This document shows positions 162-61,920 of a stretch of DNA of 64,000 bases, piece by piece. The notes beneath the pieces were generated by a model. It was not told the origin of the DNA, ran no database searches, and was given only the letters and a program-made list of their open reading frames with translations. Position 1 is the first letter of the stretch, and the number at the start of each line of letters is the position of its first letter. The DNA comes from Nitrospira sp. (GTDB lineage Bacteria; Nitrospirota; Nitrospiria; Nitrospirales; Nitrospiraceae). Position numbers and translations under genes: made by a program. The stretch is from contig SWDM01000012.1 in the NCBI GenBank assembly GCA_005116835.1, positions 36,454 through 100,453 of the forward strand. The letters are read 5' to 3'.

Positions 162-287
162 CGGATGCTGAAAACGGTCACCAACTTCGTTCTCAGTCGC
201 ATGCCTCCCTGCGACGTACCCCAGAGGGTACGCCTCAGTCGCCATGCTCCCTGCGGCCTTGCCGGAAGGCCGTTTTGAACATCCTCG
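162..287 (+). repeat. Palindromic MITE/REP-like element (PE), copy A, type 1 core
   Basis: Left end cggatgctgaaaacgg, apical hairpin cgtacc-ccagag-ggtacg, right end ccgttttgaacatcctcg. Begins 1 nt after the TGA of the upstream CDS. Confidence 0.8.
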
Positions 288-304
288 TATTCAAGCGTAG
301 GAAT

Positions 305-396
305 GGTGAAAGGTGAGATGTGCGAGGATGAGTCTTTGGCATTCGCGCCTCAGCTCTGAGAGGAACGTTTCACTTTTTACGTCTAACTTTTCACGC
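305..396. repeat. Inverted pair of degenerate GTGAAAG/GTGAAAA heptamer runs (hairpin-forming)
   Basis: Left arm ggtgaaaggtgagatgtgcgagg (305-327) faces right arm cgtttcactttttacgtctaacttttcacgc (366-396). Lies between a convergent CDS end and the moaB stop. Confidence 0.6.
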
Positions 397-909
397 CTAC
401 TTTGTGAGTTCCTTCACCAGATGCCCCAACTCCGGTAGGATCAGCTTCTCCATCGCGAGCCGGACGGCGTTTTCTGAGCCTGGTGTCGAGAAGAGGACGC
501 GGCCTTTGATGATGCCGGCGGTGGCGCGGCTCATGATAGCCGGTGAGCCGATGTCCTGGTAGGTTAGGTAGCGGAAGATCTCGCCGAATCCCACCAATCG
601 TTTTTCCAGCATGGCGTCGACGGCTTCAAAGGTTGAATCCCGTTGTGAGATGCCGGTGCCGCCATTGATGATGATGGCTTGAATTGCTTCGTTCGCCACG
701 CCTTCAGCGATCCGGCCTGTGATCTGGGCCGGTTCATCCTTCACCAAATGGTACGAGATGACTTGATGCCCGAACTGCCTGAGAAGTTTGTGGATAAGTT
801 GCCCGCTTGTATCGGTGTCAGGGTTCCGCGTGTCGCTACAGGTAATCACCATGCACCCGATGGAGCGGGGTGCATGGGATTTGTGTTCTGTATGGCTGGG
901 CGTTGGCAT
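397..909 (-). CDS. moaB: Molybdenum cofactor biosynthesis protein B (MoaB/MogA family)
   Basis: 170 aa with SDTR...DTSG and INGGTGIS-RD motifs plus a FSTPGS tail, all typical of MoaB. Confidence 0.8.
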   Translation of the reverse strand: MPTPSHTEHKSHAPRSIGCMVITCSDTRNPDTDTSGQLIHKLLRQFGHQVISYHLVKDEPAQITGRIAEGVANEAIQAIIINGGTGISQRDSTFEAVDAMLEKRLVGFGEIFRYLTYQDIGSPAIMSRATAGIIKGRVLFSTPGSENAVRLAMEKLILPELGHLVKELTK

Positions 910-921
910 AGAGATTGTTAA

Positions 922-996
922 GCAAGAGGCTAGGGGCGAGTGGCTAGGGGCATGATTCGGAACTCATCCCTCGCCTCTAGCCCCTTGCCTCTAGCC
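922..996. repeat. Inverted heptad-type hairpin (GGCTAGGGG word)
   Basis: gcaagaggctaggggcgagtggctaggggc (922-951) faces ccctcgcctctagccccttgcctctagccc (968-996). Arms pair with G-T wobble positions. Fills the gap between the ferredoxin stop and the moaB start. Confidence 0.6.
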
Positions 997-1001
997 CGTT
1001 G

Positions 1002-1328
1002 TTATTTCCACACCGAATCCGGATTCAGCTTCGCTGCCGGTTTCCCGCCCTTGATGTGTTCGTCCAAGATCGTTGCCACGTCCGCTTCCGTGACTTTGGA
1101 GTACCACGTCGCATCCGGATAGACGACGACGGTCGGTCCCTGCTCGCAGGGGCCGAGGCAGGAAGAACCGCTGACGAGGACTTCGCCAGGCGTCACACCT
1201 TTCTGCATGAGGCCCATGTTAAAGGCCATGAGGAGGGAGGCTGACCCTGCGCTGCCACAGGAGGGTTTTGGATGGCCGGGGGGACGGGCATTGGTGCAGA
1301 CGACGATGTGATACTTTGGCTTTGGCAT
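1002..1328 (-). CDS. Thioredoxin-like [2Fe-2S] ferredoxin
   Basis: 108 aa with HIVVC...PSCGS...CLGPCEQGPTVVVYPD pattern. AAGGAG lies 5 nt upstream of the ATG. Confidence 0.75.
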   Translation of the reverse strand: MPKPKYHIVVCTNARPPGHPKPSCGSAGSASLLMAFNMGLMQKGVTPGEVLVSGSSCLGPCEQGPTVVVYPDATWYSKVTEADVATILDEHIKGGKPAAKLNPDSVWK

Positions 1329-1353
1329 GGGTTCTCCTTTTATGGTCGATGAA

Positions 1354-5140: not shown

Positions 5141-5318
5141 GCAGAATGTTGAAAATGTCCGCCAGCATTGTTCTTGTTTCGCTCCCGAAGGCCGTGAAGC
5201 ACGAGGCATAAAACGTAAAACTGGGGTCAGCCTCGGAGCTGCGGCCTTGCTTGGCCAAGGCGCGTCTCGTCGCGCTAGGGCTGAATGGGTGTGAAGTCCC
5301 GCCTTTTTGAACATCCTG
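5141..5318 (+). repeat. PE copy B (type 2 core, enlarged)
   Basis: gcagaatgttgaaaatgtccgccagc ... ccgtgaagcacgaggcataaaacgtaaaac ... cctcggagctgcggccttgc ... cctttttgaacatcctg. Carries an extra segment of about 45 bp in the right arm. Confidence 0.7.
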
Positions 5319-5882
5319 AGGTTATTGGAGTCATCGCTCATTCAGTCGTATTCCACGGTGTTGTATGTGCGTATCGAGTTTTTCGTAGCCTACTAGAGTG
5401 CGTCGAGCACAAGAGGCATTTTCTCAGCCTCCCGCCATTATTCCATCGTTCCACGGTATCCCGGCTTTTCCGTGACGCTGCTAATAGCAGGCCCAGCCTC
5501 TTGCTAGATATTGCGCATGGGAACTTTCTGCACCATGGCTGAATGAGAAATGCTGGTATTTATGCGAAGAACCAAGCGTATAATTAGTATTTGAAAGTAC
5601 TAGGGTACCTATGTATACTGCCGCCCCGTACACGAGTCTTGGTCACGATGAAGATGTGTGTTGTGTTCATGTTGAGAATAATCGATGGAGTTGCAGGATC
5701 TGCGATCAGATGCAAGGGCAGGGACCTGGAAAACTCGGAGGCGCATTCATTGGGCGTGCTGAGGTTATGTCATGGGCGAGAAGACGGGTGATGGATTGAT
5801 CGCCACGGTAGAACGATTGAGAGCGACAGGCTATCAGGATAGATGGCTATTCACGGGGGAGTGAATTCCACACAGGTGACCA

Positions 5883-10269: not shown

Positions 10270-10410
10270 GGCGAGATGCGCGGGACGGGCGAGAAAGGCG
10301 CGATGTAGAGCCTCGTTTAAAGGCGTTAATCGTGAACCGTCAATCGTCGATTCACGTTTCACGAATAACGATTCACGCTGCCTGTCCCGCTTTTCCCGCC
10401 AGTCTCGCCC
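10270..10410. repeat. Nested inverted heptad repeats (GGCGAGA/GCGGGAC outer arms, CGTGAA/CGTCAA inner arms)
   Basis: Outer arms 10270-10302 and 10376-10410, inner arms 10331-10377. Occupies the whole gap between the convergent fadL-like gene and alr. Confidence 0.55.
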
Positions 10411-27501: not shown

Positions 27502-27623
27502 TCGCCTGCTGAAAACGCTCTCCAGCTTCGTTCTCAGTCGTTCGAACCACTCAACGTACCCTCACCGCGTACGCCTCGTGATTCGAACTCCTTGCGGCCT
27601 TGCTGGAAAACGTTTTGAGCAGG
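27502..27623 (+). repeat. PE copy C (type 1 core)
   Basis: Starts 1 nt after the proA TAG. Both termini carry the same variant (cgcctgctgaaaa ... ttttgagcaggcg). Confidence 0.8.
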
Positions 27624-27641
27624 CGTGTCGAGACCTCATCA

Positions 27642-32407: not shown

Positions 32408-32534
32408 GCAGGATGCTCAAAAAGGTCGCCCAGCAAGGCCGCACCTCCTCGGCAGCCCCTCGTTTCACGTTTCACGTCTCACGTTTAACGGTCCCTAAGC
32501 GAGAACGCCGCTGGCGGACTTTTTCAGCATCCTG
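32408..32534 (-). repeat. PE copy D (type 2 core, minus orientation)
   Basis: On the minus strand it reads caggatgctgaaaaagtccgccagc...cgtgagacgtgaaacgtgaaacg...gcggccttgctgggcgacctttttgagcatcctgc. Abuts the TAA (32535-32537) of the minus-strand yajD. Confidence 0.8.
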
Positions 32535-38307: not shown

Positions 38308-38319
38308 GGAAAGCCTCCA

Positions 38320-41951: not shown

Positions 41952-42074
41952 GCAGGATGCTGAAAAAGTTCGCCAGCATCGTTCTCGTATCGCTTCCAAA
42001 GACCGTGAAACGCGAAACGCGAGGATCAACCTCGGAGCTGCGGCCTTACTGGACAGCCTTTTTGAACATCCTGC
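41952..42074 (+). repeat. PE copy E (type 2 core)
   Basis: gcaggatgctgaaaaagttcgccagc...ccgtgaaacgcgaaacgcgagg...cctcggagctgcggcc...cctttttgaacatcctgc. Confidence 0.8.
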
Positions 42075-42427
42075 GGCTTTGTTGATGTCGACGCCAATAT
42101 GGAAGGTTCCACTGGCATTTAGTGCATCAACTGAGTTTTTCGCAGCCTGATGGATATGTAATATCAGAGCCTCACACGACGAGCATTAACTCTGATGTGA
42201 ATCGTTTTTGATTCGCCGATGAATCTAAATTGATTCATCGCGCTGAATGATTATGATGGTGGAGGATGGGTAAGTGAGGGGAGTGTATAACGAGTTCATG
42301 GGGTGTCCCGGGCTCCGGTTTAACCCGCATAACTCATGGCTTTTCGCCGCGAAATGACGGAGTGGCGTAGGACTCGCTTGAGTCAGGTATTGGAAGTTTC
42401 GGTAGAAGTCTTCGTGAGTTAAACGGG

Positions 42428-43644: not shown

Positions 43645-43734
43645 CAGAAACCGTGAAAGGTAAAACGTAAAAGGTGAAACGAGAGATATCTGCGGACCTG
43701 CGGCCTTGCTGGGCGAACTTTTTGAGCATCCTGC
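43645..43734 (+). repeat. PE copy F (type 2 core, left arm missing)
   Basis: Begins right after the ung TAG: cagaaaccgtgaaaggtaaaacgtaaaaggtgaaacg...ctgcggccttgctgggcgaactttttgagcatcctgc. Confidence 0.65.
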
Positions 43735-44787: not shown

Positions 44788-44910
44788 CAGGATGCTGAAA
44801 AAGTCCGCCAGCTTTGTTCTCGCATCGCTCAGAGGCTCAACGTACCGAAACGTACGCCTCGCCTCTTCGCTCGCTGCGGCCGCGCTGGACGGCCATTTTG
44901 AGCATCCTGC
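44787..44910 (+). repeat. PE copy G (type 1 core; used here as reference copy)
   Basis: gcaggatgctgaaaaagtccgccagc...ctcaacgtaccgaaacgtacgcctc...gctggacggccattttgagcatcctgc. Confidence 0.85.
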
Positions 44911-47020: not shown

Positions 47021-47029
47021 AGTCTGGTA

Positions 47030-47154
47030 GCAGGCTGTTGACAAAGTCCGCCAGCGGCGTTCTCGCATCGTTCAGACCCTCAACGTACCGCAAGGGTACG
47101 CCTCGGGCCTTCACTCGCTGCGGCCTTGCTGGACGGCCTTTCTGAACAGCCTGC
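47030..47154 (+). repeat. PE copy H (type 1 core)
   Basis: Both termini carry gcaggctgtt instead of gcaggatgct. Starts 9 nt after the upstream TAA. Confidence 0.8.
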
Positions 47155-49053: not shown

Positions 49054-49065
49054 TTGCGCGAAGTG

Positions 49066-49151
49066 CGTGACAAGCGGGACGAGCGAGAGGGGTAGAGACA
49101 GGACTAATCTTTTACGTCGCGATTTTCTCGCCTGTCTCGCTCATCTCGCCC
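49066..49151. repeat. Inverted heptad-type hairpin (GCGAGAC/GCGGGAC word)
   Basis: cgtgacaagcgggacgagcgagaggggtagagacagg faces gattttctcgcctgtctcgctcatctcgccc. Confidence 0.55.
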
Positions 49152-49224
49152 TTATTTGACTCTCTTTCCCCCTCTTCATATAATGCCGCTCGATAGTTGA
49201 TTTCGACAGCCTTTCCAGACACTT

Positions 49225-49617
49225 ATGGCTTCCTCGACCAAGACAGTCCTCCCAGGAAAATGGGGCAAGATTCGCGCGGAACTTGCCCATGCCTTTTCGA
49301 CACACTCCGGGCCTGAGCGGTTCACGGGCGAAGATATTGAGTTACTTGAACGGATGGCCGATGCGGTGGTGAAACGGGGCATGGCTGCTCCAGCCACGGT
49401 TTTTCTGGAATCGCTTGGCCCCATGAACTTCCTCGGCAGCCAGGCACTGTATTTCCTGACCCCCATCGTTGAATGGGCCTTTCAGGCGATAGAAATCGAG
49501 CAGGTGGCTCGGTTGCTTGAACGTCGCGATACGATTGCCCGTCTTATCGCTATCATTGAAACAAAGGCTACCCCCCCAATTCCTCCCCCGGCTCCGGAAG
49601 GAGCCTCCGCTCCATGA
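49225..49617 (+). CDS. Hypothetical protein (first gene of the 49.2-58.0 kb cluster)
   Basis: 130-aa ORF with a Pro-rich tail. No family recognised. Confidence 0.5.
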   Translation: MASSTKTVLPGKWGKIRAELAHAFSTHSGPERFTGEDIELLERMADAVVKRGMAAPATVFLESLGPMNFLGSQALYFLTPIVEWAFQAIEIEQVARLLERRDTIARLIAIIETKATPPIPPPAPEGASAP

Positions 49618-49625
49618 CAAAATGC

Positions 49626-49710
49626 CGTGAAACGTTAAACGTGAAAGGTGAAACGTCTCTCGTGAAGCGTAGTTCGCGAACGACGAGATACGAGATGCGA
49701 ACGACGTTTG
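49626..49710 (+). repeat. Tandem run of about 12 degenerate heptamers
   Basis: gtgaaac gttaaac gtgaaag gtgaaac gtctctc gtgaagc gtagttc gcgaacg acgagat acgagat gcgaacg, with strict 7-nt phase. Confidence 0.7.
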
Positions 49711-49744
49711 TCCAGTTACACATTTCAGATCAAGAGCCTGCCGC

Positions 49745-51568: not shown

Positions 51569-51689
51569 ATGATGAATGTTGAATTTTGAATGATGAATGG
51601 TAAACGAGGATTCATAGAAAGCACAGGTTTGTGGGGAGCCGAGGGGATGAGTTTCTTAATTCATCATTCCACATTCCAGATTCCACATT
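51569..51689. repeat. Inverted heptad-type repeat pair (TGAATGA word)
   Basis: atgatgaatgttgaattttgaatgatgaatgg faces ttaattcatcattccacattccagattccacatt. Starts 1 nt after the TAA of the upstream gene. Confidence 0.65.
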
Positions 51690-51699
51690 GAGCTGAAGT

Positions 51700-52833
51700 A
51701 TGGCCCATTCCTATACTCCAGGCTTAACCGTGACAGAGCACACGACAGTCCGACGTCGTCGGATGTTGTCGTTGCCTGGCACTGTATTGGTTGCGGCTGG
51801 GGAGGTCGTGCGGGCGAATCAGGCGGTCGCTCGCGCGGAACTGCCAGGGAAGGTCTATCCCTTGAATCTCGCCAATCAGTTGGGGGTGGGACCGGACGAG
51901 ATCCAGGAGTATTTGATCAAGAAGGCCGGCGACAGGGTGCAGAAGGACGAGATTCTGGCGGAGAACAAACCGCTTATCAAGTGGCTCAAGACGGAGGTTC
52001 GCTCACCTGTGACAGGTGTTGTGGAATCTGTGTCCATGGTCACGGGGCAGGTGTTGTTGCGGGAGCCGCCGCGTGTATTGGAGTTGTTGGGTTATGTGGA
52101 CGGGCGCATCGTCGAGGTGATCCCACAGCAGGGTGCCGTGGTCGAAACTGATTGCAGTCTGGTGCAGGGCATCTTCGGCATCGGTGGGGAAACCAGGGGT
52201 GAGATCATGCTCGCGGTGACATCGCCGGACGAAGCGCTGACCCCTCGTCAACTCACGGCAGAGATGAAAGGCAAGATCGTTGTGGGAGGTTCCTTTATCT
52301 CTTCCGACGCGCTCACTCGAGCAAAAGAGGTGGGAGTAGCAGGCTTGGTGATCGGCGGCATTCACGATAAGGATTTGCGCGCATTGCTGGGCTACGACCT
52401 TGGCGTGGCCATCACCGGTACGGAGCAGGTCGGCTTTACCCTGATCCTCACCGAAGGATTCGGCGCCATTCCCATGGCCGGTAAAACATTCACGTTGCTT
52501 TCCGCCCATGCAGGTCAGCCTGCTTCTATTTCAGGCGCCACACAAATTCGTGCCGGTGTCATTCGTCCGGAGATCATCATCCCCACACAGCTAAGTGCAG
52601 TTGGCACTCTCAGTGCGGTTGCCGTGCCGCAGCGGGAAGGTATCAGGATCGGTGACCAAGTTCGGATCATTCGAGATCCCTTGTTCGGCAAGATCGGAGA
52701 AGTCTCAAGTCTGCCATCGGAGCTCCAGAAGATTCCGACCGAGAGCGAGGTACGTGTGATGGAAGTTCGCTTTGCCGATGGCAGCAAGGCTGTGATTCCG
52801 CGGACGAATATTGAATTGATTGAAGGAGCTTAG
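51700..52833 (+). CDS. Hypothetical soluble protein with barrel-sandwich-like N-region and KOW-like C-terminus
   Basis: 377 aa. ...VRSPVTGVVESV... hybrid-barrel-like segment and IGDQVRIIRDPLFGKIGEV KOW-like segment. Weak motif-level call. Confidence 0.6.
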   Translation: MAHSYTPGLTVTEHTTVRRRRMLSLPGTVLVAAGEVVRANQAVARAELPGKVYPLNLANQLGVGPDEIQEYLIKKAGDRVQKDEILAENKPLIKWLKTEVRSPVTGVVESVSMVTGQVLLREPPRVLELLGYVDGRIVEVIPQQGAVVETDCSLVQGIFGIGGETRGEIMLAVTSPDEALTPRQLTAEMKGKIVVGGSFISSDALTRAKEVGVAGLVIGGIHDKDLRALLGYDLGVAITGTEQVGFTLILTEGFGAIPMAGKTFTLLSAHAGQPASISGATQIRAGVIRPEIIIPTQLSAVGTLSAVAVPQREGIRIGDQVRIIRDPLFGKIGEVSSLPSELQKIPTESEVRVMEVRFADGSKAVIPRTNIELIEGA

Positions 52834-52959
52834 CGGGATGCTGAAAACGTCTGCCAGCTTCGTTCTCGGCTCTTCGAAATCCTCAACGTACCCCAGAGGG
52901 TACGCCTCCGGTTTCGACTCGCCTGCGGCCTTGCTGAACAGACGTTTTGAGCATCCCGC
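52833..52959 (+). repeat. PE copy I (type 1 core)
   Basis: Overlaps the last base of the upstream TAG. Both termini carry gcgggatgct / agcatcccgc and acgtctg / cagacgt variants. Confidence 0.85.
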
Positions 52960-52975
52960 CTTATGGAAGGCATTG

Positions 52976-54220
52976 ATGCTCCTGCTCATGACTGTTCTGA
53001 GTCAGTCATGGTCGCCGGTGTTTGCCCAAACCGACATCCAGACGAAGACGCCACTCGCGCCGCCGCAAGATGTTCGTGTGTTCGATACACCGAGCGATGG
53101 TGGCGATAGCCTAACCGTGATATGGGCTCCCGCTCCCTACGATAGTGCTGCGGTGAGGTATCAGGTATTACTCAGTGAGGGAACGTCGGTCGCAGATCCG
53201 GCTACCATGAAGGTCGTGGCGGAATTTCCGGCGAACCAGCGCTATGTCCGAGAATCCAAGTGGCCCTGGTGGACGAGGCCGGCGACCGGCGACCAGCACC
53301 AGTATACGCTGAGGAGTGGAAGGGGAGTCGAGCTGAAGAGCGGAACTCTATACAGCATCACCGTGGCTACGGTGCTGAACGACGAACGCAGCATTGCCGC
53401 GCCGGGACAGGCCGCGCCGGAACCGAATTGGATCAATTGGAACCAGATGAATAATCTTCTATTGGCGCTCCTGTTCGGCGGGATCGTGTTCTACGCCATC
53501 GGTACCGCCAGAAAACGTGAGATTTTCCTCCGGCGCATTCCCGGCCTCGATGCAGTGGATGAGGCGATCGGCCGCGCAACCGAGTTGGGTAAGCCGATTC
53601 TGTACATGACCGGCGCCCATGACATGAGCGATCCATCGACCATTGCGGCGGCGGTTATTCTTGGGCGTGTGGCCAAACGAGCGGCGGCCTATGAGACCGA
53701 TTTACTGGTACCCCACCGCGAGCCGATCACCATGGCGGTGTGCCAGGAGATTACGAAGCAGGCCTATCTGGAAGCAGGCAAACCCGATCTTTACAAGGAC
53801 GATTCCAATTTCTTCATTACGTCGGATCAGTTCAGCTATACCGCGGCGGTGGACGGCATCATGTTGCGGAAAAAACCTGCAGCGAACTTCTTTATGGGAC
53901 ATTATTTTGCCGAGGCATTGCTTCTGACGGAAACGGGCGCGAGCACCGGCGCAATCCAAATCGCCGGGACGGACTCCGATCATCAGCTGCCGTTCTTCGT
54001 CACTACCTGCGATTACACCTTGATCGGGGAAGAACTCTACGCTGCCAGCGCGTACCTCTCCAGAGAGCCGGTGCAGGTCGGCACATTGCGTGGGCAAGAC
54101 ATCGGCAAAGCCCTCATCCTCGGCGTCCTTGGTATCGGTACGATACTGGCTACTCTTGGGATCCTGTTCGATGCCCAGTGGCCAAAATTATTCCTAGACT
54201 TTTTCAGGGACGTGAAATGA
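52976..54220 (+). CDS. Membrane protein: signal peptide, FN3-like domain, TM, large conserved domain, C-terminal TM
   Basis: MLLLMTVLSQSWSPVFAQ; PPQDVRVFDTPSDGGDSLTVIWAPAPY...YQV (FN3-like); hydrophobic helices at about aa 150 and at the C-terminus. The N-terminal track extension lies in PE copy I and is rejected. Confidence 0.6.
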   Translation: MLLLMTVLSQSWSPVFAQTDIQTKTPLAPPQDVRVFDTPSDGGDSLTVIWAPAPYDSAAVRYQVLLSEGTSVADPATMKVVAEFPANQRYVRESKWPWWTRPATGDQHQYTLRSGRGVELKSGTLYSITVATVLNDERSIAAPGQAAPEPNWINWNQMNNLLLALLFGGIVFYAIGTARKREIFLRRIPGLDAVDEAIGRATELGKPILYMTGAHDMSDPSTIAAAVILGRVAKRAAAYETDLLVPHREPITMAVCQEITKQAYLEAGKPDLYKDDSNFFITSDQFSYTAAVDGIMLRKKPAANFFMGHYFAEALLLTETGASTGAIQIAGTDSDHQLPFFVTTCDYTLIGEELYAASAYLSREPVQVGTLRGQDIGKALILGVLGIGTILATLGILFDAQWPKLFLDFFRDVK

Positions 54221-54867
54221 TCTTTCTCCGACGACAGGGTCCGCTCCTGGTTACCCTCATCACCGGGCTCGTGTTTGCGGCTCAATACTATGTGCCGCAC
54301 CCGGCTTCGGAGCAGATGTTGACCTCCGTCACGAAATGGCTCCAGATCATCGGTGGGTTCGCGCTGGTGCTGGGAGTCAGCAGTCTGTTCCACGTCCATG
54401 CCGCCAAGATCCGGCGCAAAGAAGCGGGCTGGGGTTATAGTTTTGTCCTCTATGTCGGCATGCTGGGGACTATTGCGCTCGGCTTCTGGTCTAACGGCAA
54501 GGAAGCAATCGACGGCACCATGACGGCATTCGGGTGGATCTATAACTATATGATGGTCCCGCTGCAGGGAACGATGTTTGCGATTCTCGCCTTCTTCATC
54601 GCCTCGGCAGCCTATCGCTCGTTCCGCGCGCGGAGCCGTGAGGCGGCGGTGCTGCTCATTGCGGCGGTGATTGTCATGATGGGTCGCGTCCCGCTTGGAG
54701 AATATCTGATCCCGATCAGCGGCGACCTGTCCCAGTGGATCTTAAATGTGCTGAATGCGTCGGTGCGGCGCGCGATCCTGATCGGCGTCAGTCTCGGCAC
54801 AGTTGCGCTCTCCATCAAGATCATCTTCGGCATGGAACGGTCGTATCTTGGGGGAGGCAAGGAGTGA
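54217..54867 (+). CDS. Integral membrane protein (about 5 TM)
   Basis: The ATG overlaps the upstream TGA (ATGA). 216 aa, hydrophobic throughout. Confidence 0.6.
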   Translation: MIFLRRQGPLLVTLITGLVFAAQYYVPHPASEQMLTSVTKWLQIIGGFALVLGVSSLFHVHAAKIRRKEAGWGYSFVLYVGMLGTIALGFWSNGKEAIDGTMTAFGWIYNYMMVPLQGTMFAILAFFIASAAYRSFRARSREAAVLLIAAVIVMMGRVPLGEYLIPISGDLSQWILNVLNASVRRAILIGVSLGTVALSIKIIFGMERSYLGGGKE

Positions 54868-54874
54868 TGACGAG

Positions 54875-54955
54875 CGATCAGCTATCAGCCGTCAGCTCTC
54901 AGCTCCGGAATCGAGGACTCGCCTGTTACCTGAAGGCTGATTGCTGATGGCTGAG
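54875..54955. repeat. Inverted heptad-type hairpin (TCAGC word)
   Basis: gcgatcagctatcagccgtcagctctcagctc faces cctgaaggctgattgctgatggctgag. Confidence 0.65.
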
Positions 54956-54981
54956 TGCCCGGTGGCGACGAAGGAGCGACC

Positions 54982-55827
54982 GTGACTTTCGCTGAACGCA
55001 TGCTCAAGATCGACCGGCGGATCATCTTTCTGGTGATCGGTCTCTGCACGCTTATCCCGTTACTCTATCCGGTCGGGTTGCCGATCAAGATTTCGCCGGA
55101 GGTGCGCGGGGTCTACGACCATATTGAATCGCTCCCTGAGGGATCCGTGTTTTTGCTCTCGCTGGACTTCGATCCGGCGTCGAAGCCTGAACTGATGCCG
55201 CAATCGATTTCATTGCTGCGCCATGCGTTCCGGAAGAAGCTTCGCGTCATTGCGTTGACGCTCTGGGTATCCGGCACCGGCATGGCCGACCAGGTCGTCA
55301 CGCAGGTCGCCCGGGAGATGGGCAAGGAGAGCGGAAAGGATTATGTATTCCTCGGCTGGAGCCCAGGTGGAACCGCTGTCATCATCAACATGGGGCAGGA
55401 TCTCTATGGCGCGTTCCCTGCCGACTACAACGGTAAACCTACAAAGGGACTATCGGTATTGCAGGGTGTCGCCAGCCTGCGCGATGTGAACTATGCCGTC
55501 AGCCTGGGCGCAGGCAATCCCGGCGTCGAAGCCTGGTATGTGTTCGGCAAGGACAAATACAAGTTCGAACTCGGCGGCGGCTGCACGGGCGTCATGGCGC
55601 CTGGACTCTATCCGTTATTACGGAGTGGTCAGATCAACGGTCTGATCGGCGGCCTGCGCGGCGCAGCAGAATATGAAATCTTGATCGATCAAAAGGGCAA
55701 AGCCGTTGCCGGGATGGATGCCCAGTCGGCCACCCATTTGGCCATCATCGTGCTGGTCGTCCTGTGTAACCTGTTCTATTTCGCATCGCGCAATATTGCC
55801 AGACGGCAAAGTCAGTCAGGGGCATAA
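54982..55827 (+). CDS. Bitopic membrane protein (N- and C-terminal TM helices around a soluble domain)
   Basis: GTG 54982 lies 5 nt after AAGGAG. No family recognised. Confidence 0.55.
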   Translation: MTFAERMLKIDRRIIFLVIGLCTLIPLLYPVGLPIKISPEVRGVYDHIESLPEGSVFLLSLDFDPASKPELMPQSISLLRHAFRKKLRVIALTLWVSGTGMADQVVTQVAREMGKESGKDYVFLGWSPGGTAVIINMGQDLYGAFPADYNGKPTKGLSVLQGVASLRDVNYAVSLGAGNPGVEAWYVFGKDKYKFELGGGCTGVMAPGLYPLLRSGQINGLIGGLRGAAEYEILIDQKGKAVAGMDAQSATHLAIIVLVVLCNLFYFASRNIARRQSQSGA

Positions 55828-55833
55828 CGATCG

Positions 55834-56586
55834 ATGCCGATTGAAACTATCATCGGGGGCTGGGTGGCGACGGGGTTAACCCTCTTCATCTTTTCATTTC
55901 TCTATAAGGATAACCCGCTCTTCAAGCTGGCGGAGAATCTCTACGTCGGCGTGTCGGTCGGCTACACGATCATCAAGACCTACGACACCGTAGTCGTCCA
56001 GCTCATCTGGAAGCCGATCGTCGAGAACGGGGAATGGACATTGTTGATTCCAGTCGCCATCGGGATGCTCATGCTCACACGTTATGTTCCGAAAGCCGCC
56101 TGGATCTCGCGATACGCATTTGCCTTCATTGTGGGCGTCGGGTCAGGGCTCGCCATCCCTCGGACCATCTCCTCCTTTATCTTGAAACAGATCGAAGATA
56201 CGGTTCGCCCGCTACTGACGTTGATACCGGGCGAGGGTGTGACCTTTACTTGGAGCCTGTTGAATCCCGCTAGTAGCGTGAACACCATCATTATCCTGAT
56301 CGGCGTCAGCTCCGTGCTGTTCTATTTCTTTTTCTCTGTCGAGCACAGGGGGCCTGGCAAGGTTGTGGCCCGCACGGGCATCATGTTCCTGATGATCGCC
56401 TTCGGCGCGGCCTTCGGCTACACCGTGATGGCCCGCATGTCGCTCTTGATCGGGCGATTGACCGACCTCATCGAGTTCACCGATCCCTCCTATGGCAGGC
56501 CGAGCCTCTGGCTCGCTGGGTTGACCATTCTCACCCTAGTGGTGATGGCTCGCCGGTCCAGAAGCCATCCACCCGAAGAAAAGTAG
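55834..56586 (+). CDS. Integral membrane protein (about 7 TM)
   Basis: 250 aa. Starts 6 nt after the upstream stop. No family recognised. Confidence 0.6.
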   Translation: MPIETIIGGWVATGLTLFIFSFLYKDNPLFKLAENLYVGVSVGYTIIKTYDTVVVQLIWKPIVENGEWTLLIPVAIGMLMLTRYVPKAAWISRYAFAFIVGVGSGLAIPRTISSFILKQIEDTVRPLLTLIPGEGVTFTWSLLNPASSVNTIIILIGVSSVLFYFFFSVEHRGPGKVVARTGIMFLMIAFGAAFGYTVMARMSLLIGRLTDLIEFTDPSYGRPSLWLAGLTILTLVVMARRSRSHPPEEK

Positions 56587-56668
56587 GTTTGTTTTGTTTG
56601 TTTGGTTGAACGAGACTGCCTAATGAATCAAATCAACAAAATAAACCAGATGAACCAACCAAACCAGC
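56587..56668. repeat. Inverted heptad-type hairpin (AACCAGA / GTTTGTT word)
   Basis: gtttgttttgtttgtttggttgaac faces caacaaaataaaccagatgaaccaaccaaaccagc. Begins at the base after the TAG. Confidence 0.6.
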
Positions 56669-56726
56669 TCCCGGTTGCAGCTAGCGCGACTCCCTCGCTA
56701 CAATGGGCGCTCAAAAAAGGAGCGTC

Positions 56727-57974
56727 ATGACCACATCTCCCAGCATCGACAGAGATCCCAAACAGTATCCCGCTCTCCGCAACCTGCAATTCTCGCCGAT
56801 CAAAGAGGGTGAGGAGCAGTACATGGTCTTGTGGGATCCGACTGGACTAAGCAAAGAGAAGCTCGTGTTGCCGCTCAACTATTTTTTCATCATTCAGCAT
56901 TTCGACGGCGAGCACTCGCTGGCTGAAATCGGAGCGCTCTATCTCAAACGATTCGGTGAATTTCTGGTGCCCAGCAAAATCGATCAGCTGGTGTTCGATC
57001 TGAATGAGAAGCTGTTCTTGGAAGGTCAGCGAGCTGAAGACGCCCGCAGGCTGGCGCGGGAGACCTATCGCCAAAGCCCGCTACGCCGCGCAGCCTTTGC
57101 CGGGCGGGGGTACGAGGCAGACGGAGCGAAACTGAAAAAACAAATCGACGGATTCTTTACGTCCCAAGAAGGACCGGACTTCAAACCGTCAGAGCATGCG
57201 GGGAAAAAGATCAAGGGCCTCGTCGCCCCGACCTACGACCTGAAACACGCAGGACCGATCTATGCCTGGGCCTATAAAGAGCTGCAAGATGCGGAGGAGC
57301 CGGATCTATTCGTGATTATCGGCACTGCTTCTGCCGGACTGGACCATGTATTTGCCGTGACGGACAAGGATTTCGAAACGCCTCTCGGTGTCGTGTCCGC
57401 AGACCAACCGATTCTGAGCCAACTCAAGGCCAAGCTCCCGGATTTCTTTGAAGACGATCTTTGCCATCAGGCCGAGCAGGCTGTGGAATTTCAGCTTCCG
57501 TTTCTTCAGGACATCGTGGGGAAGAAGAAGCCTTTCACTATCGTGCCGATCTTGAGTGCTTTTTCTGCGGCGAGTCTGGGAGATCCAACCGTGCGCCAAT
57601 CGGTCGATCAGTTCTTGATCGGACTTAGTGAGATCCTCTCACAATCGGGCAGGGCTTACTGTGTGATCGCAGCGGGAGACCTGGCGCATCTGGGTATGCG
57701 CTACGGAGACAAGGCGCCTCCAACGGACTTTTCCTTTCATCGGTGTATGCAGTTCGACCTGGAAATGTTGAAACCGGTGGAGGAGCGCCAGCCGGAAGAG
57801 TTTGCCAACTACATCAGGAAAGAACAGGACCAGCGCCGGATCTCCGGCTTCTCCCCCATCTATTCCTTACTACGTTTGATCGAAGCGGAGAGCGGGCAGG
57901 TCTTACGCTATGACCGCGGGATCACCGACCAATACAATTCCACCGTGACTTACGCATCGATGGCATTTTTCTAG
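56727..57974 (+). CDS. MEMO1-family protein (AmmeMemoRadiSam system protein B type) with an N-terminal extension of about 140 aa
   Basis: C-terminal 270 aa follow the MEMO pattern (RRAAFAGRGYE...LVAPTYDLKHAG...GDLAHLGMRYGD...SGFSPI). N-terminal extension is LWDPTGLSKEKLVLPLNYFFIIQHFDGEHSLAEI... Confidence 0.75.
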   Translation: MTTSPSIDRDPKQYPALRNLQFSPIKEGEEQYMVLWDPTGLSKEKLVLPLNYFFIIQHFDGEHSLAEIGALYLKRFGEFLVPSKIDQLVFDLNEKLFLEGQRAEDARRLARETYRQSPLRRAAFAGRGYEADGAKLKKQIDGFFTSQEGPDFKPSEHAGKKIKGLVAPTYDLKHAGPIYAWAYKELQDAEEPDLFVIIGTASAGLDHVFAVTDKDFETPLGVVSADQPILSQLKAKLPDFFEDDLCHQAEQAVEFQLPFLQDIVGKKKPFTIVPILSAFSAASLGDPTVRQSVDQFLIGLSEILSQSGRAYCVIAAGDLAHLGMRYGDKAPPTDFSFHRCMQFDLEMLKPVEERQPEEFANYIRKEQDQRRISGFSPIYSLLRLIEAESGQVLRYDRGITDQYNSTVTYASMAFF

Positions 57975-58060
57975 CATCGGCTGCTGAAACAGACTCCCAG
58001 CTGCGTGCTCACCTCGAACAGGTCCTCAACGTACCCGATTGGGACAAGAGCTGCTTGGCA
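57974..58060 (+). repeat. Degenerate PE copy K (approximate limits)
   Basis: Follows the TAG: gcatcggctgctgaaacagactcccagctgcgtgctcacctcgaacaggtcctcaacgtaccc... The right arm has largely decayed. Confidence 0.35.
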
Positions 58061-58351
58061 GCTCGGGGTGGGCGGGTGAGAACTGTTACGCCTCCTGTTG
58101 TGGCTCCCTGCAGCCTCGTTGTTTGTCCTGTTGGAAGTGCCTGGGCCTTTCGAGTTCGTGTCTTGCTCATGGACCATTTCCCTCGCTCGTGCGAACTAAC
58201 AAACCGCAGTTCAACACAGCGGTTGAGTCAGTGCATTGCGCCATAACGACATCAATTCCAAGAGGCTTGTCATCAGTTCAGGCTAGTCAGAGACTCTTCA
58301 TGAGGCGGATAATAATGTGGAAAAGTTATTTGTGAATTATGGATAAAACCG

Positions 58352-58636
58352 TTAAGCCTTTGGGTTCTCTTTCTCTGGTCCAGATGGACCCCAGAGATCG
58401 CCTAAGCCTAGCGAGTCCCACAAGTCTTTCTCAGACTTGGGGGGAGCTCCCTCAAGAAAGTTGGCGAGGATTTTCGATTTGTAGGCTGCAGCGTGCGGGC
58501 GGCATTTCTTTACCGCAGCTGCATATTCCTGTTTCGATACACGCAAGCTTTGAAGGAGAACGCCCTGAGCCAGTATGAGAGCGTGATGAACCGAAAGCGC
58601 ATGGGCCAGACTCTCAATGAGTTTGCGATTTGTCAT
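58352..58636 (-). CDS. Hypothetical protein
   Basis: AAGGAGG lies 7 nt upstream of ATG 58636. 94 aa. No family recognised. Confidence 0.45.
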   Translation of the reverse strand: MTNRKLIESLAHALSVHHALILAQGVLLQSLRVSKQEYAAAVKKCRPHAAAYKSKILANFLEGAPPKSEKDLWDSLGLGDLWGPSGPEKENPKA

Positions 58637-59023
58637 GAGTGAACCTCCTTAAGGATGATGCCATTCAACACCTCAATATGGTCACTAATCTGCTGCCATG
58701 GCCGCGTCATGTGGAGAGAGCGATGAATCAGGCGGAAATAAAAATCCGGAAATACAGCACGATGGCGGCTGCGAGGTTAGCCAACTTGCTTGAGAAAGCC
58801 AAGGTCAGCCTGTGAAAACGAGCGATTTTTATTCTGCGCTCATGCGTTCTCCTCTTGCACCTTCATCCTCGCCCGGCTAAAATAGCATGAGTTTTCCTGA
58901 AAATAAGTGCTCTAGAACCGCTGGAGCACCAACGGCTGTCTAGAGGACAGGTGGCACTCTCGTCATTCTGTTAACTAACCCTGAATATTTCCCTATCTTT
59001 GTGGGAATAAGGAGTTGAGGGTC

Positions 59024-59371: not shown

Positions 59372-59781
59372 TCATTATCCCTTGGAAGAACCGCGCGACA
59401 CTTGCCATCTGTATTTGCCACCACGCTGCTACCAGGACAGGACATATCCCCCCCAGCACCCCCAACGTAGGAGCATTATGGCTTGTGGTTCCTTGTGGGG
59501 TTAGGTTGTCTGCGTTAGGGCTAGGGAAGTCAAATCTCAGGGTTCAAAAACTACGGTTTGTGATTGGCTTGGCCGGCAAAGGCATGATCGAAGACCGCTC
59601 TAAGGTGTGAGTTGAAATGCCTGAGCGATGATTCCACTGCGGGCATCGAGCGATCACCGTTTTATTACTTTCTCCCATGAGGGCTGGCTAGATGGTTTCC
59701 CTACGCGTGTTCTGCGGGGGGTCTTCCGAGACCGCGCGTTGCTCGAGCACAGGAGATTATTTAGGCTGCCCTCCGCTCCCT

Positions 59782-60303
59782 CTATTCTTTGACTGACATG
59801 GTGATCGTAATCGGCTTCAGAGGGTTGTCGAATTCGTCGCGCGGCGCGGCGACGATCTTGTCCACCACGTCCATGCCGCGAAAGACCTCGCCGAAGACGG
59901 TGTAGGTACGGTCCAGCCCGCTGTTATCATCGACACAGATATAAAACTGCGAGCCGTTATCGTTGGGGTCACGCGTGCTGTTGCTCTCTCGTGGAACCTT
60001 TGCCATGCCGATCGCGCCCCGTTTATGCGGACGATCGCTGGTTTCAGGATTGAGCCAATAGCCAGGACTGCCGGATCCGTGGAGTGCACGGTCTGCGGTC
60101 TTGCTCAGTGGATCGCCGCCCTGGATGATGAATCCTGGAACGACGCGATGGAAAGTGGTTCCATCGTAGAACCTCATCTTGGCGAGCTTCAGAAAGTTCT
60201 CGACGTGGCGTGGAGCGTCATCCGGGTAGAATCGAATCTTGATCTCGCCGAGTGGCGTCGTAATGGTAACGCGCGGGTCGATCTTTTGAAATTGCATGGT
60301 CAT
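59782..60303 (-). CDS. ppiB: Peptidyl-prolyl cis-trans isomerase, cyclophilin type
   Basis: FHRVVPGFIIQGGDP...GSQFYI. Confidence 0.9.
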   Translation of the reverse strand: MTMQFQKIDPRVTITTPLGEIKIRFYPDDAPRHVENFLKLAKMRFYDGTTFHRVVPGFIIQGGDPLSKTADRALHGSGSPGYWLNPETSDRPHKRGAIGMAKVPRESNSTRDPNDNGSQFYICVDDNSGLDRTYTVFGEVFRGMDVVDKIVAAPRDEFDNPLKPITITMSVKE

Positions 60304-60343
60304 TGCGTCAACCTAGCAAGGACAACGTTCAAGAGGCAAGAGA

Positions 60344-60450
60344 CGTGAAAGGTGAAACGTAAAAAGTGAAACGTCTCAGAGCACCCAAGACATCGGCCTC
60401 GCTTTTCTGCTTCATCCGTTTCACGTCTAACCTTTCACGTTTCACGCTTC
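60344..60450. repeat. Inverted heptad-type hairpin (GTGAAAC word)
   Basis: cgtgaaaggtgaaacgtaaaaagtgaaacgtct faces ccgtttcacgtctaacctttcacgtttcacgcttc. The right arm supplies the last codons (KRET) and the stop of the MFS gene. Confidence 0.7.
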
Positions 60451-61718
60451 AATCCTTTCCCCGGATCGATTTTGAGCCACAAGATCCCACCTAGGATGGC
60501 CACGGCCGCGGCCACGCCTAACGAGACAGGCCAGCCCCACTGATCGGCCAACCACGGAGTTAGGGTTGGTGAGATGGTCCCGCCGATATTGGCTCCGGTG
60601 TTCATGAGCCCTGACAATGTGCCTGCATGGGCTTTCGATAGGTCAGTCGTCGAAGCCCAGTAGGCGCCGACCGCAAAGTAGAGCCAGCCTGCGCCGAATG
60701 ACAGGCTGGTGATCGCCAGAAATGGAGAATCCACGACCCCACCCAGCGCAATCGCGCATCCAGCCAGGATCATGCCGGTCATGCCGGTCACAGATCGTCC
60801 GGTAGTGAGACCGTAGCGGGCCGCAAGTCGATCCGTCACCCAGCCTCCCAGGGGGCAAAAGATCAACATGGCTACAAAGGGAGCGGAGGCATAGAATCCG
60901 CCGCGGAGTACATCGAATCCACGGACATTCACGAGGTACAAGTAGAACCAGGACAGATAGACGTAGGCGACATAGCCGAGGCAACTGTAGCTGAGTACCA
61001 GCCACCAGATGGTCGGAGTCCGACTGAACGTTCGCCAGGGCACGGCGGTGGTGGCGGTCGGCACACGCGTGAGCAGGGCCTGTTCACCTTCATTCACCCA
61101 GGGATGTTCGTGCGGGTGGTTGCGCGACAGGAGCCACCAGAGGATCGCCATCCCGATTCCCAGCAGGCTCGCGAGGAAAAATACGGTCGGCCAGCCCCAG
61201 TTCACCATCACCCAGGCGGCAATGGGCGGGGTCATGGCGGAACCTAATCCAATGCCTCCGATGGCGATTCCGATGCCAAGGCCTCGCCTATCAGCCGGGA
61301 GCCAATTGGTGACGGCGCGATTGAAGGCAGGCAGCGCCACGGCTTCTCCCACGCCCAGCGAAAACCGCACGAGCATCAGGGCGCCGACCACTCCGAAGAG
61401 ACTCGCGAGCGACGTGGCAGCGACCATGGCAGTGAAGGCCGTACAGATCGACCACCAGAGAAGCGCGACGGTGAGCACCACGCGGACTCCCCAGCGATCG
61501 GCCAGCCATCCACCGGGAATCTGAAACAGGGCGTAGCCGACGACGAAGGCCGAGAAGATCCAACCCATCTGTTGATCGGTCATCCCATAGGCCGGCATCA
61601 TCTGACGCGCGGTCACGGAGATATTGACGCGGTCGATATAGGTGACGACGCTGATGAGAAACAGCAGGGCGAGGATGAGCCAGCGGATGCGTGATGGGCG
61701 AGTCGTGAGTGTCTTCAC
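60435..61718 (-). CDS. MFS transporter (anion:cation symporter, ACS-like)
   Basis: 12 TM; GWLADRWG motif between TM2 and TM3. Confidence 0.85.
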   Translation of the reverse strand: MKTLTTRPSRIRWLILALLFLISVVTYIDRVNISVTARQMMPAYGMTDQQMGWIFSAFVVGYALFQIPGGWLADRWGVRVVLTVALLWWSICTAFTAMVAATSLASLFGVVGALMLVRFSLGVGEAVALPAFNRAVTNWLPADRRGLGIGIAIGGIGLGSAMTPPIAAWVMVNWGWPTVFFLASLLGIGMAILWWLLSRNHPHEHPWVNEGEQALLTRVPTATTAVPWRTFSRTPTIWWLVLSYSCLGYVAYVYLSWFYLYLVNVRGFDVLRGGFYASAPFVAMLIFCPLGGWVTDRLAARYGLTTGRSVTGMTGMILAGCAIALGGVVDSPFLAITSLSFGAGWLYFAVGAYWASTTDLSKAHAGTLSGLMNTGANIGGTISPTLTPWLADQWGWPVSLGVAAAVAILGGILWLKIDPGKGLKRET

Positions 61719-61790
61719 AAAGTTGAGTCGTGCAGTCTGTCCATCGTGATAGCGGTGGCGGATTATACAGAGTCGGGGTGCGGGGCACTA

Positions 61791-61920
61791 GCAGGATGCT
61801 GAAAAGCGCCAGCGGCAGAAGATCGTTATATTGGTTAATTTGGTTTGTCTCGTTTGTTTGGTTAAACCAGACAGGCCAGATAAACCAGATGAACAAAACA
61901 AACCAGCTTGAGCATCCTGC
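61791..61920 (+). repeat. PE copy J (PE termini around an AACCAGA heptad core)
   Basis: gcaggatgctgaaaagcgccagcgg ... ggttaatttggtttgtctcgtttgtttggttaaaccagacaggccagataaaccagatgaacaaaacaaaccagc ... ttgagcatcctgc. Confidence 0.7.

Follow-up and report, generated by a model that had tools for sequence, protein, structure and literature searches.

The window, a stretch of 64,000 nucleotides from a contig of Nitrospira sp. (SWDM01000012.1), carries eleven copies of a palindromic element, designated A to K (Table 1). An nhmmer search seeded with positions 44787-44911 retrieved ten of them, while copy K, with its different core, was found by eye and by the pattern of its terminus; all eleven copies listed in a first-pass annotation of this DNA thus exist. 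Terminus-like 16-mers occur 20 times in the window against 3.4 expected. As evidenced by Pfam, the genes beside the copies include CBS, aldehyde-dehydrogenase/ProA-like, HNH, UDG and Memo genes, and copies A, C, D, F, G, I and J indeed start 0-2 nt after the stop codon of a gene on the same strand, as had been reported.

Table 1. Copies of the palindromic family in the window, with their structure and surroundings.
Copy	Position (strand)	Structure	Surroundings
A	162..286 (+)	Tail-less hairpin; nhmmer 3e-23; fold -48.5 kcal/mol	Directly 3' of TGA 159-161 of a CBS-domain ORF (Pfam) that runs off the window start
B	5142..5392 (+)	Complete unit; long hairpin 5142-5318 and tail ending GAGTTTTTCGTAGCCTA	Flanks CGAG and CTAG; away from ORF ends
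C	27502..27625 (+)	Diverged tail-less hairpin	Immediately 3' of TAG 27499-27501 of the ProA-like gene; ATG of the next gene ~11 nt downstream; position conserved across Nitrospira
D	32409..32534 (-)	Tail-less hairpin; core of GTGAAACG units	Immediately 3' of TAA 32535-32537 of the HNH (yajD-like) gene, minus strand
E	41953..42149 (+)	Complete unit; hairpin 41953-42073 and 76-nt tail ending GAGTTTTTCGCAGCCTG	Flanks CTGG and ATGG; away from ORF ends
F	43645..43733 (+)	Left arm deleted; TAG-CAG kept, then core and right arm	UDG gene stops at TAG 43642-43644
G	44788..44909 (+)	Reference copy; family-like modules run on to 44997, right boundary uncertain	Directly after TAG 44785-44787 of a 114-aa ORF; CTAG 44998-45001 doubles as stop of an opposite-strand 82-aa ORF
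H	47031..47153 (+)	Terminus variant CAGGCTGTTG	10 nt past TAA 47018-47020; preceded by out-of-frame TAG 47028-47030
I	52834..52958 (+)	Tail-less hairpin	Directly after TAG 52831-52833 of a 377-aa ORF
J	57977..58144 (+)	Diverged, with internal insertion	Starts 2 nt after TAG 57972-57974 of the Memo-like gene
K	61792..61994 (+)	Complete unit; GGTTTG/CAAACC-rich core, 75-nt tail	Perfect 4-bp duplication, CTAG 61788-61791 and CTAG 61995-61998; away from ORF ends

The first-pass annotation had described a unit of approximately 125 bp. Its arms of ~26 nt, inverted repeats of each other, were confirmed, but a complete unit extends further, to ~200-215 bp. The 125-bp palindrome within it is built from a left terminus CAGGATGCTGAAAAAGTCCGCCAGC, a self-complementary core that varies between copies and, internally, the terminus repeated in inverted orientation. 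A tail of ~76 nt follows and closes with a second right terminus ...GTTTTTCCGCAGCCTG, which looks IS5-like by eye. Both ends of the unit are marked by termini CAGGMTGCKGAAAAAS. The tail with its second terminus is found in copies B, E and K of the window and in 51 of 101 complete copies from Nitrospira loci outside it. The left-terminus pattern matches more than 118 loci, nearly all of them in metagenome-assembled genomes (MAGs) of Nitrospira or Nitrospiraceae, and about 150 units from many genomes were counted in 118 loci, with sizes ranging from 122 to 330 nt; the family is abundant in Nitrospira. Folding energies of whole copies range from -48 to -69 kcal/mol (z -3.3 to -8.7), and because the cores vary the units have no consistent reading frame. 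No plasmid or viral matches to the family were found, and Rfam 15 models matched nowhere in the window at gathering scores and, at E<=1, not in positions 44600-45100 either.

The nucleotides flanking the units reveal how they were inserted. Among 122 5' flanks CTAG was found 36 times, CTAA and TTAG 14 times each and TTAA 7 times. In the tail-bearing units the 5' flank is perfectly repeated on the 3' side in 19 of 51 cases, compared with 10.0 in shuffles (P=0.0002), and the flanks seen in duplicate are CTAG, CTAA, TTAG, TTAA and CTAC; a match in three of four positions is present in 18 more of these units. For flanks other than CTAG the repeat is perfect in 7 of 28 units, with 1.4 expected (P=0.00015). 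The target is YTAR (CTAG, TTAG, CTAA, TTAA) and is duplicated on insertion, and both the target and the duplication are those of the IS5-group transposases: published targets of IS5 comprise 15 CTAG, 3 CTAA and 3 TTAG out of 24, with a 4-bp Py-T-A-Pu duplication (PMC5493358).

The adjacency to stop codons holds up in the relatives. Of 122 copies at 118 other Nitrospira loci, 83 stand behind a TAG or TAA, and 52 of these 83 triplets close an open frame of at least 80 codons, as compared with 10.9% of all TAG and TAA triplets. The base preceding an occupied stop is C or T in 34 of 43 cases, the background for TAG and TAA stops being 47%, and since this base is biased the target must extend into the gene. 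The earlier proposal that the element targets stop-codon contexts is therefore correct in that YTAR contains TAG or TAA and is duplicated, but the specificity is for the tetranucleotide and is lower than for a stop context as such.

The further statement that the element is always co-oriented with the upstream gene did not survive the analysis of the 51 complete units from other genomes, where the tail end coincides in 12 cases with the stop of an ORF on the opposite strand, and the hairpin end with a stop in 19 (and in three further, edge-limited cases). Either end of a complete unit can fall on a stop codon, and sometimes both do, between convergent ORFs. The apparently constant co-orientation arose in part because the element had been defined by its hairpin half. 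Some bias does remain when all copies are counted, with 43 hairpin ends on stops versus about 17 for the other end, although the latter figure is an undercount because divergent tails were missed.

The 50 copies without a recognised tail repeat their 5' flank on the 3' side only at chance level, with no perfect case. Their termini carry 2.74 mismatches on average versus 0.94 in tail-bearing copies (P=0.005), and a purine at position -4 is more common among them (P=0.011). At one orthologous site (L104 versus L022) a deletion that reaches the start of the next gene truncates the tail. Tail-less copies have more diverged termini, and they would on average be older, decayed units in which the tail and the 3' duplication have gone through deletion or decay and the pyrimidine before TAR has drifted. 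As such a loss is possible only where the tail does not carry the stop of a neighbour, tail-less copies look strictly co-oriented. Note that three presence/absence pairs among the first loci (L044/L072, L058/L047, L087/L065) show no duplication and have 5' flanks that are not YTAR; they resemble deletions of the hairpin more than clean empty sites, and we saw no unoccupied YTAR stop that was provably ancestral.

We conclude with a probability of roughly 0.8 that each 125-bp palindrome is the hairpin-forming left portion of a non-autonomous IS5-type transposon (MITE), one of a heterogeneous Nitrospira family whose YTAR target is duplicated so that stop codons are regenerated. The family was previously undescribed, the kind of element was already known. 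As judged from the anatomy of the units, with TAG or TAA lying within the duplicated target, a stop that follows C or T would be rebuilt at the junction when the element inserts there, and the protein would stay unchanged. YTAR insertions within genes would destroy the gene and be lost, and the survivors would pile up on stop codons and in spacers. In the 1.24 Mb of Nitrospira DNA examined, tblastn with InsH did not find an IS5-like transposase, and no pair of termini 600-3500 nt apart that encloses a transposase was among the genome-collection matches listed.

The copy behind proA stands apart in its conservation. Its identity across Nitrospira, 0.815, exceeds that of third codon positions (0.618) and of the upstream spacer (0.52), in lineages that share only 72% identity in ProA itself. 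In the alignment 95.7% of cells are paired, nine pairs have changed on both sides, a number reached by one of 500 shuffles, and the covariation score is 0.169 versus 0.098 for shuffles and 0.01-0.04 for slid controls. In addition, the hairpin contains fixed G-U pairs in the sense strand. This pattern of substitutions suggests that the proA copy is kept by purifying selection, although the hairpin has been lost in several lineages. Transcribed as a hairpin 0-2 nt past a stop, a stable stem may affect 3'-end stability, processing or translation termination, and copies at sites other than proA would decay. The copy after ORF 51700-52833 (copy I) is found at only 2 of 16 orthologous loci. From these comparisons, any function would be locus-specific, with support at the single locus of proA. 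An intrinsic (Rho-independent) terminator was considered and rejected, as there is no U-tract signature and the T run belongs to the 3' arm instead of following it; in positions 41000-59000 no terminator-like site coincides with the end of a copy. The suggestion that the element is retained for a role at the mRNA 3' end consequently fits the conserved proA copy with its compensatory pairs, but neither the fate of copy I nor the lack of terminator-like copies.

These findings bear on a different order of events, in which function comes first: selection would act mainly on the hairpin as an RNA element of the 3' end, where it could stabilise the message, provide a processing site or slow translation termination in the way of REPs lying up to 15 nt from a stop, and its position on stop codons would reflect retention rather than insertion specificity. 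The proA copy, conserved above third positions and spacer and with compensatory changes and fixed sense-strand G-U pairs, is in line with this, as are the high stability of the hairpins, the more frequent occurrence of the hairpin end on stops and the stalling of ribosomes by REPs located no more than 15 nt from a stop (Liang et al. 2015, as cited in PMC12306157). However, the 4-bp duplication and the pyrimidine before the stop explain the position without invoking function, 58 of 101 copies lie away from ORF ends, and at 14 of 16 orthologous loci copy I is either missing or decayed. With the proA hairpin itself lost in several lineages, and neither a U-tract terminator signature nor an Rfam match, we consider a functional origin of the placement somewhat unlikely.

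Two further explanations concern the junction itself. The first-pass annotation had raised the possibility that the element donates the stop codon. The element would then bring its own TAG, perhaps with a few C-terminal residues, to genes hit at their 3' end. The occupied proA sites are almost all TAG, where hairpin-free sites have TGA, TAA or TAG, and ORF 24573-25937 ends, with its last codons and its TGA, inside a module that has homology to internal parts of other members of the family, a possible case of such a donation. As a rule it does not apply: ProA has the same C-terminus (..K-R-P-stop) whether or not the element is present, the domains of the Memo and UDG proteins reach the C-terminus, the flank is TAA in a quarter of the copies and is repeated at the far end, and the pyrimidine-biased base before the stop is part of the target. 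The flank being a target-site duplication, the stop codon pre-exists in the target and is regenerated, not donated, which leaves stop donation as hardly credible. Movement as single-stranded DNA by a tyrosine (HUH) transposase, in the manner of REP/REPIN-like or IS200/IS605-type elements, would in turn imply that the element inserts downstream of a fixed tetranucleotide tag, duplicates nothing and is oriented with replication; in GTAG-tagged REPs the TAG of such a tag can serve as a stop. The hairpin structure and the tail-less copies, which conserve the tag solely on the 5' side and lack the duplication, agree with this, but the 4-bp direct repeats on either side of complete units co-vary, the tag is YTAR with GTAG in only 5 of 122 5' flanks, and the termini resemble IS5-type ends by eye. 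Moreover, the unit measures 125-215 bp as opposed to a palindrome of 20-40 nt, and its strand shows no bias relative to the GC skew of the locus (64 concordant, 56 discordant, P=0.52), so that we regard this route as highly improbable.

With a target that is itself a stop codon, hundreds of stable hairpins would have been seeded at the ends of coding regions in Nitrospira genomes, and the host might have recruited a substantial share of them, beyond proA, as a lineage-wide post-transcriptional control. Protection of mRNA 3' ends, operon polarity or a slowed translation termination as for REPs by stops could be the roles, and the related CGTGAAA-type repeats that carry TGA stops might belong to the same system. 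We regard this extension as speculative and unlikely. The proA copy is a concrete candidate for a domesticated MITE. More generally, the family suggests a rule of safe landing, by which the 4-bp duplication of a stop-containing target permits insertion at the end of a gene with single-base precision and without harm to the protein.

Nitrite oxidation is carried out mainly by Nitrospira, to which the complete ammonia oxidisers also belong, and Nitrospira genomes are for the most part MAGs. The family breaks assemblies, with contigs ending inside copies, and gene callers extend downstream ORFs through copies, as for a DUF6754 protein called with 427 aa instead of about 380. Annotation would therefore gain from a description of this family, which is as abundant as 11 copies in 64 kb.

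Long hairpins of this kind are familiar from the Correia/NEMIS elements of Neisseria and ERIC of Yersinia, hairpin-forming MITEs of 100-150 bp with inverted repeats of ~26 bp that duplicate TA, form long RNA hairpins where they are co-transcribed and can change mRNA stability (in part from PMC3733652). Their sequences are unrelated to the Nitrospira units, and we know of no reports of a systematic placement on stop codons. GTAG-tagged REPs and REPINs are likewise abundant extragenic palindromes just 3' of genes, the TAG of their terminal tag is often the stop of the flanking ORF, and their hairpins, like those of Nitrospira, are probably co-transcribed with the upstream gene (PMC3733652, PMC2817692). 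REPs are, however, only 20-40 nt long, with an unpaired GTAG or GTGG at one end, no target duplication and tyrosine (RAYT) transposases, whereas the Nitrospira units have a duplicated YTAR flank and termini that look IS5-like.

A closer likeness is found in MITEPsy1 of Pseudomonas syringae, which like ISPsy2 belongs to the IS5 family with a 4-nt duplication of CTAG/YTAA (PMC3189936). Both MITEPsy1 and the Nitrospira units are small and non-coding, with terminal inverted repeats of ~18 nt and insertion at CTAG/YTAA with 4 nt duplicated, and in both the subterminal block CTGAAAAAG is found equally far from the tip (positions 8-16 in the Nitrospira units), as judged by eye and after the fact. MITEPsy1 is 100 nt long and has few copies, its parent IS is known, and descriptions do not present it as a single long hairpin, while the Nitrospira units, at 125-330 nt, repeat the terminus internally in inverted orientation, vary in their palindromic cores and share a conserved tail; they are very abundant and had no parent in the 1.24 Mb examined. 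The left end of Escherichia coli IS5, GGAAGGTGCGAACAAGTCC, in turn resembles the Nitrospira CAGGATGCTGAAAAAGTCC, matching at 14 of 18 positions in an alignment made by eye without a significance test. IS5 is an autonomous element of 1.2 kb that encodes InsH and the Nitrospira units are non-autonomous, but both share the Py-T-A-Pu target, with CTAG as its commonest form, and the 4-bp duplication (PMC5493358).

A profile search seeded with positions 44787-44911 recovered ten copies of the family in the window, and an eleventh, copy K, shares the family's termini and has a different core. Terminus-like 16-mers occur 20 times in the window against 3.4 expected. The arms of the copies are inverted repeats, and single copies fold into one long hairpin (-48 to -69 kcal/mol, z-scores -3.3 to -8.7), in agreement with the first-pass annotation, which had described eleven palindromic copies, A to K. 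It had also placed seven of them directly behind stop codons, and as evidenced by the junctions and the ORF list, copies A, C, D, F, G, I and J indeed start 0-2 nt 3' of the stop of an ORF on the same strand. Copy H lies 10 nt downstream of a stop, and copies B, E and K are found away from ORF ends. By Pfam, the neighbouring genes encode CBS, ProA-like aldehyde dehydrogenase, HNH, UDG and Memo proteins; the Memo match stops at most 3 residues short of the C-terminus, and the UDG match at most 15.

We scanned one genome per species with a left-arm pattern, which matched at least 118 loci (L numbers) with about 150 copies, nearly all in MAGs of Nitrospira or Nitrospiraceae. Note that a single left-terminus match, L031 (contig CAVSXG010000001.1), comes from a MAG labelled Chloroflexia and reflects either mis-binning or transfer. 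Among the matches listed, the four bases 5' of the element (n=122) are CTAG in 36 cases, CTAA in 14, TTAG in 14 and TTAA in 7, and TAG or TAA precedes 83 of the 122 copies. Fifty-two of these 83 triplets close open frames that span 80 codons or more, where the background is 10.9% of all TAG/TAA in the same DNA. The stop-codon association is real and general.

In the same sample, the bases 3' of the right arm initially showed no comparable signal. Sorting of the 3' flanks revealed that many copies continue into a conserved tail of ~76 nt, of at least two sequence types, which ends in ...GTTTTTCCGCAGCCTG, a second right terminus that complements the left one; the terminus that bounds the family units is CAGGMTGCKGAAAAAS. 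The unit is thus not the ~125 bp originally described, as about half of the complete copies (51 of 101; in the window B, E and K) carry both tail and second terminus. In these 51 units, the outer terminus is followed by four bases that echo the 5' flank, perfectly in 19 and at three of four positions in 18. The perfect pairs include CTAA/CTAA, TTAG/TTAG, TTAA/TTAA and CTAC/CTAC, and copy K has CTAG at both sides. Shuffled flank pairing yields 10.0 perfect matches (P=0.0002), and among non-CTAG flanks 7 of 28 match where 1.4 are expected (P=0.00015). Further units have left terminus and tail in common and enclose very different, longer, self-complementary interiors; the cores of paralogous copies are too variable to be aligned for RNAalifold. 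A complete copy G that would close with CTAG 44998-45001 was also considered, but the right end is unlike the terminus, and this boundary is left as uncertain.

A REP- or IS200-type origin, with a tyrosine transposase, had been prompted by the one-sided YTAG tag. This reading was dropped: the tail, the second terminus and the co-varying duplications contradict it, as does the rarity of GTAG (5 of 122 5' flanks among the matches listed). Neither is element orientation linked to GC skew. Ten of the eleven window copies lie on the + strand, where GC skew is positive, but replication-linked orientation is unsupported in the wider sample, with 64 concordant and 56 discordant copies.

The duplicated target, YTAR (CTAG, TTAG, CTAA or TTAA), instead offers a route to the stop codons. 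Since TAG or TAA is part of the target and is copied with it, insertion at a stop preceded by C or T would leave the left junction with an intact stop, and as CTAG and TTAA are palindromic, a stop on the opposite strand would arise at the right junction as well. The proposal that insertion targets stop contexts therefore stands in so far as the target contains TAG or TAA; what is recognized is the tetranucleotide, not stops as such. The proposal that the element donates the stop was not borne out as a rule, as three results show that the stop pre-exists. Of 43 occupied stops, 34 have C or T at the base directly 5' of them, which is the last base of the final sense codon, compared to 47% of TAG/TAA stops overall. 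At 77 orthologous proA loci, K-R-P-stop closes the protein at the identical position with or without the element. Of 58 copies away from ORF ends, only 26 retain TAR (7 have TGG), which fits an unselected relic of the target. By a rough count of available sites, 227 YTAR stops face 812 intergenic YTAR, so that with ~43% of copies on stops the latter are about 2-fold over-represented, and target availability explains much but not all of the pattern. The excess plausibly reflects that insertions into promoters and leaders are tolerated less well than those just after a stop. A separate observation concerns the ORF at 24573-25937, whose last codons (..R-G-G), TGA stop and next ~75 nt are homologous to an inner module seen in longer members of the family (compare L092, 4470-4395) and lack a left terminus; here a decayed element may possibly have supplied the end of the reading frame.

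The copies had further been described as always co-oriented with the upstream gene, and this did not hold up in the wider sample. Of the 51 complete units, 19 (and 3 more limited by contig ends) have their hairpin-side duplication at the end of an ORF that is 80 codons or longer, 12 have their tail-side duplication at the end of an ORF on the opposite strand, and three combine the two. Among 50 copies without a recognised tail, a same-strand ORF ends at the 5' flank in 24, and an opposite-strand ORF ends within 15 nt of the 3' end in only 5. These copies are older on average (2.74 versus 0.94 mismatches per 40 nt terminus, P=0.005), and a purine precedes TAR in 10 of 30 as opposed to 3 of 39 (P=0.011). 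In the orthologous pair L104 and L022 a tail is truncated by a deletion that extends to the start codon of the next gene. Tail and 3' duplication would be lost over time, except where the tail bears the neighbour's stop, and we read the strict co-orientation of tail-less copies as a consequence of the fact that only tails without such a stop can be lost. Nevertheless, a residual bias towards the hairpin end may remain, with 43 cases overall against about 17 at the tail end, the latter an undercount as divergent tails escape detection.

Individual sites show turnover. Behind an identical 114-aa protein at the site of copy G (L119-L126), strains have differing interiors behind one left terminus, and contigs break there; others show a 30-nt duplication or a different tail, and several contigs end inside the repeat. 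The three presence/absence pairs among the first loci all lack both YTAR and duplication, and at proA in L127, L134 and L173 only the stop and the last element bases (..GGCG) remain. Between L044 and L072 the difference is precisely the hairpin, and no duplication is present. The hairpin-less alleles look like deletions of the palindrome itself rather than transposase excision or clean, never-occupied sites. Such losses are to be expected of long palindromes.

None of the copies shows a U tract behind the stem, and Rfam holds no match for the element. At proA, however, about 50 of 77 loci have a recognisable hairpin of ~125 nt at the same position, and 40 have it complete, across a set in which ProA identity falls to 72%. 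In 39 loci with the complete hairpin, pairwise identity is 0.82 for the element versus 0.63 for third codon positions of proA, and in 37 of them 0.815 versus 0.52 for the spacer upstream of proA. When 30 orthologous copies are aligned, 95.7% of cells pair and 9 of 33 pairs have changed on both sides, a value reached by 1 of 500 shuffles; the covariation score is 0.169, compared to 0.098 for shuffles and 0.01-0.04 for slid controls. Several double changes are confined to single lineages (L176, L180, L167, L204). Template-switch repair within palindromes could mimic such compensation, but leaves the conserved loops unexplained. Two near-fixed G-U pairs would become C-A mismatches on the opposite strand, which speaks for folding of the sense transcript. 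The idea that copies are retained for a role at the mRNA 3' end thus gains from the conserved, compensated proA copy and loses from the copy behind the 377-aa ORF, which only 2 of the 16 orthologous loci possess, and from the lack of a U-tract terminator. Our conclusion is that tolerated passengers make up most of the copies, with at least one copy recruited. The proA hairpin would most likely serve to protect or process the mRNA 3' end, or to modulate termination or coupling where proA adjoins the methyltransferase gene, by analogy with REPs, which are cited as stalling ribosomes when they lie within 15 nt of a stop (Liang et al. 2015, as cited by PMC12306157).

Other repeats in the window also meet stop codons (Table). 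Where 1.06 occurrences of CGTGARRSGT are expected, 13 are present; the motif is built of roughly heptameric GCGTGAR/CGTGAAA units, of which the cores in copies D, E and F also consist. A TGA stop lies inside it in three genes, and at hairpin-less loci orthologous to proA and the 377-aa ORF such repeats often sit directly on the stop; a 7-nt repeat with TGA places a stop in all three frames. These repeats may be a second stop-codon family or terminus-less remnants of the first. Gene calls are affected as well. At L208-L227, orthologous to window 52834-54220, the DUF6754 gene is called 3-27 nt past the upstream stop with 405-457 aa, versus 380 aa in L218, and the extra N-terminal residues read through repeat DNA, as in the corresponding window ORF. 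AGGATGCT(G/C)AAAAAG in both element arms creates spurious 'MLKK...' ORFs.

Features of the window referred to in the text
Feature	Position	Strand	Remark
Copy C	27502..27625	+	proA copy
Copy G	44788..44909	+	reference copy
Copy I	52834..52958	+	adjoins 377-aa ORF 51700-52833
Copy K	61792
CGTGARRSGT site	10354-10363
CGTGARRSGT site	26105-26114
CGTGARRSGT site	28846-28855
CGTGARRSGT site	32995-33004
CGTGARRSGT site	49626-49670
CGTGARRSGT site	60344-60353
CGTGARRSGT site	60430-60446
ORF	27600-28850		TGA inside CGTGARRSGT
ORF	60025-60348		TGA inside CGTGARRSGT
MFS gene	60435-61718		TGA inside CGTGARRSGT
Inner-module homology	25926-26010		end of ORF 24573-25937
Stretch behind copy G	44910-45001		closing CTAG doubles as the stop of an 82-aa ORF on the other strand
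ORF	52820-54220		TTG start; reads through repeat DNA
Low-G+C region	36000-44000		48-50% vs 53-58% elsewhere; copies E, F at edge
Large ORF	39565-41520		651 aa; like other large ORFs of this region, no Pfam or NCBIfam match
Direct repeats	62240-62299, 62393-62452		60 nt, 78% identical, 153 nt apart, unrelated to element

On the basis of its termini and target, the family is filed as an IS5-type MITE, a small non-autonomous transposon, for which no autonomous partner was found. No transposase lay between termini when orphan termini and long terminus pairs were searched, and a candidate autonomous element in L058 (2276-3240) was rejected as two separate small elements flanking an ordinary gene. 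By tblastn, 1.24 Mb of Nitrospira DNA contained no relative of InsH, the IS5 transposase of E. coli, and plasmid BLAST and a viral-contig scan gave no match. In the literature we found no paper on Nitrospira MITEs, none printing these sequences, and no MITE family described as landing systematically on stops via YTAR duplication; a 2024 MITE review leaves stop codons unmentioned. No published description of the Nitrospira family itself was found. A 4-bp Py-T-A-Pu duplication that is most often CTAG is the hallmark of IS5, for which CTAG 15, CTAA 3 and TTAG 3 of 24 targets are reported (PMC5493358). MITEPsy1, a 100-nt derivative of the IS5-family ISPsy2 with the terminus GGAAGGTCTGAAAAAGCC, duplicates CTAG or YTAA (PMC3189936), and the block CTGAAAAAG is equally far from the tip in MITEPsy1 and in the Nitrospira element. 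In a post hoc alignment of our own, which contains one gap, the left end of IS5, GGAAGGTGCGAACAAGTCC, and the Nitrospira CAGGATGCTGAAAAAGTCC agree at 14 of 18 positions. By mechanism, the nearest relatives are IS5 and MITEPsy1, its MITE derivative, and what sets the Nitrospira family apart as noteworthy is its architecture, with an inner inverted terminus copy, variable palindromic cores and a conserved tail, together with one anciently conserved copy.
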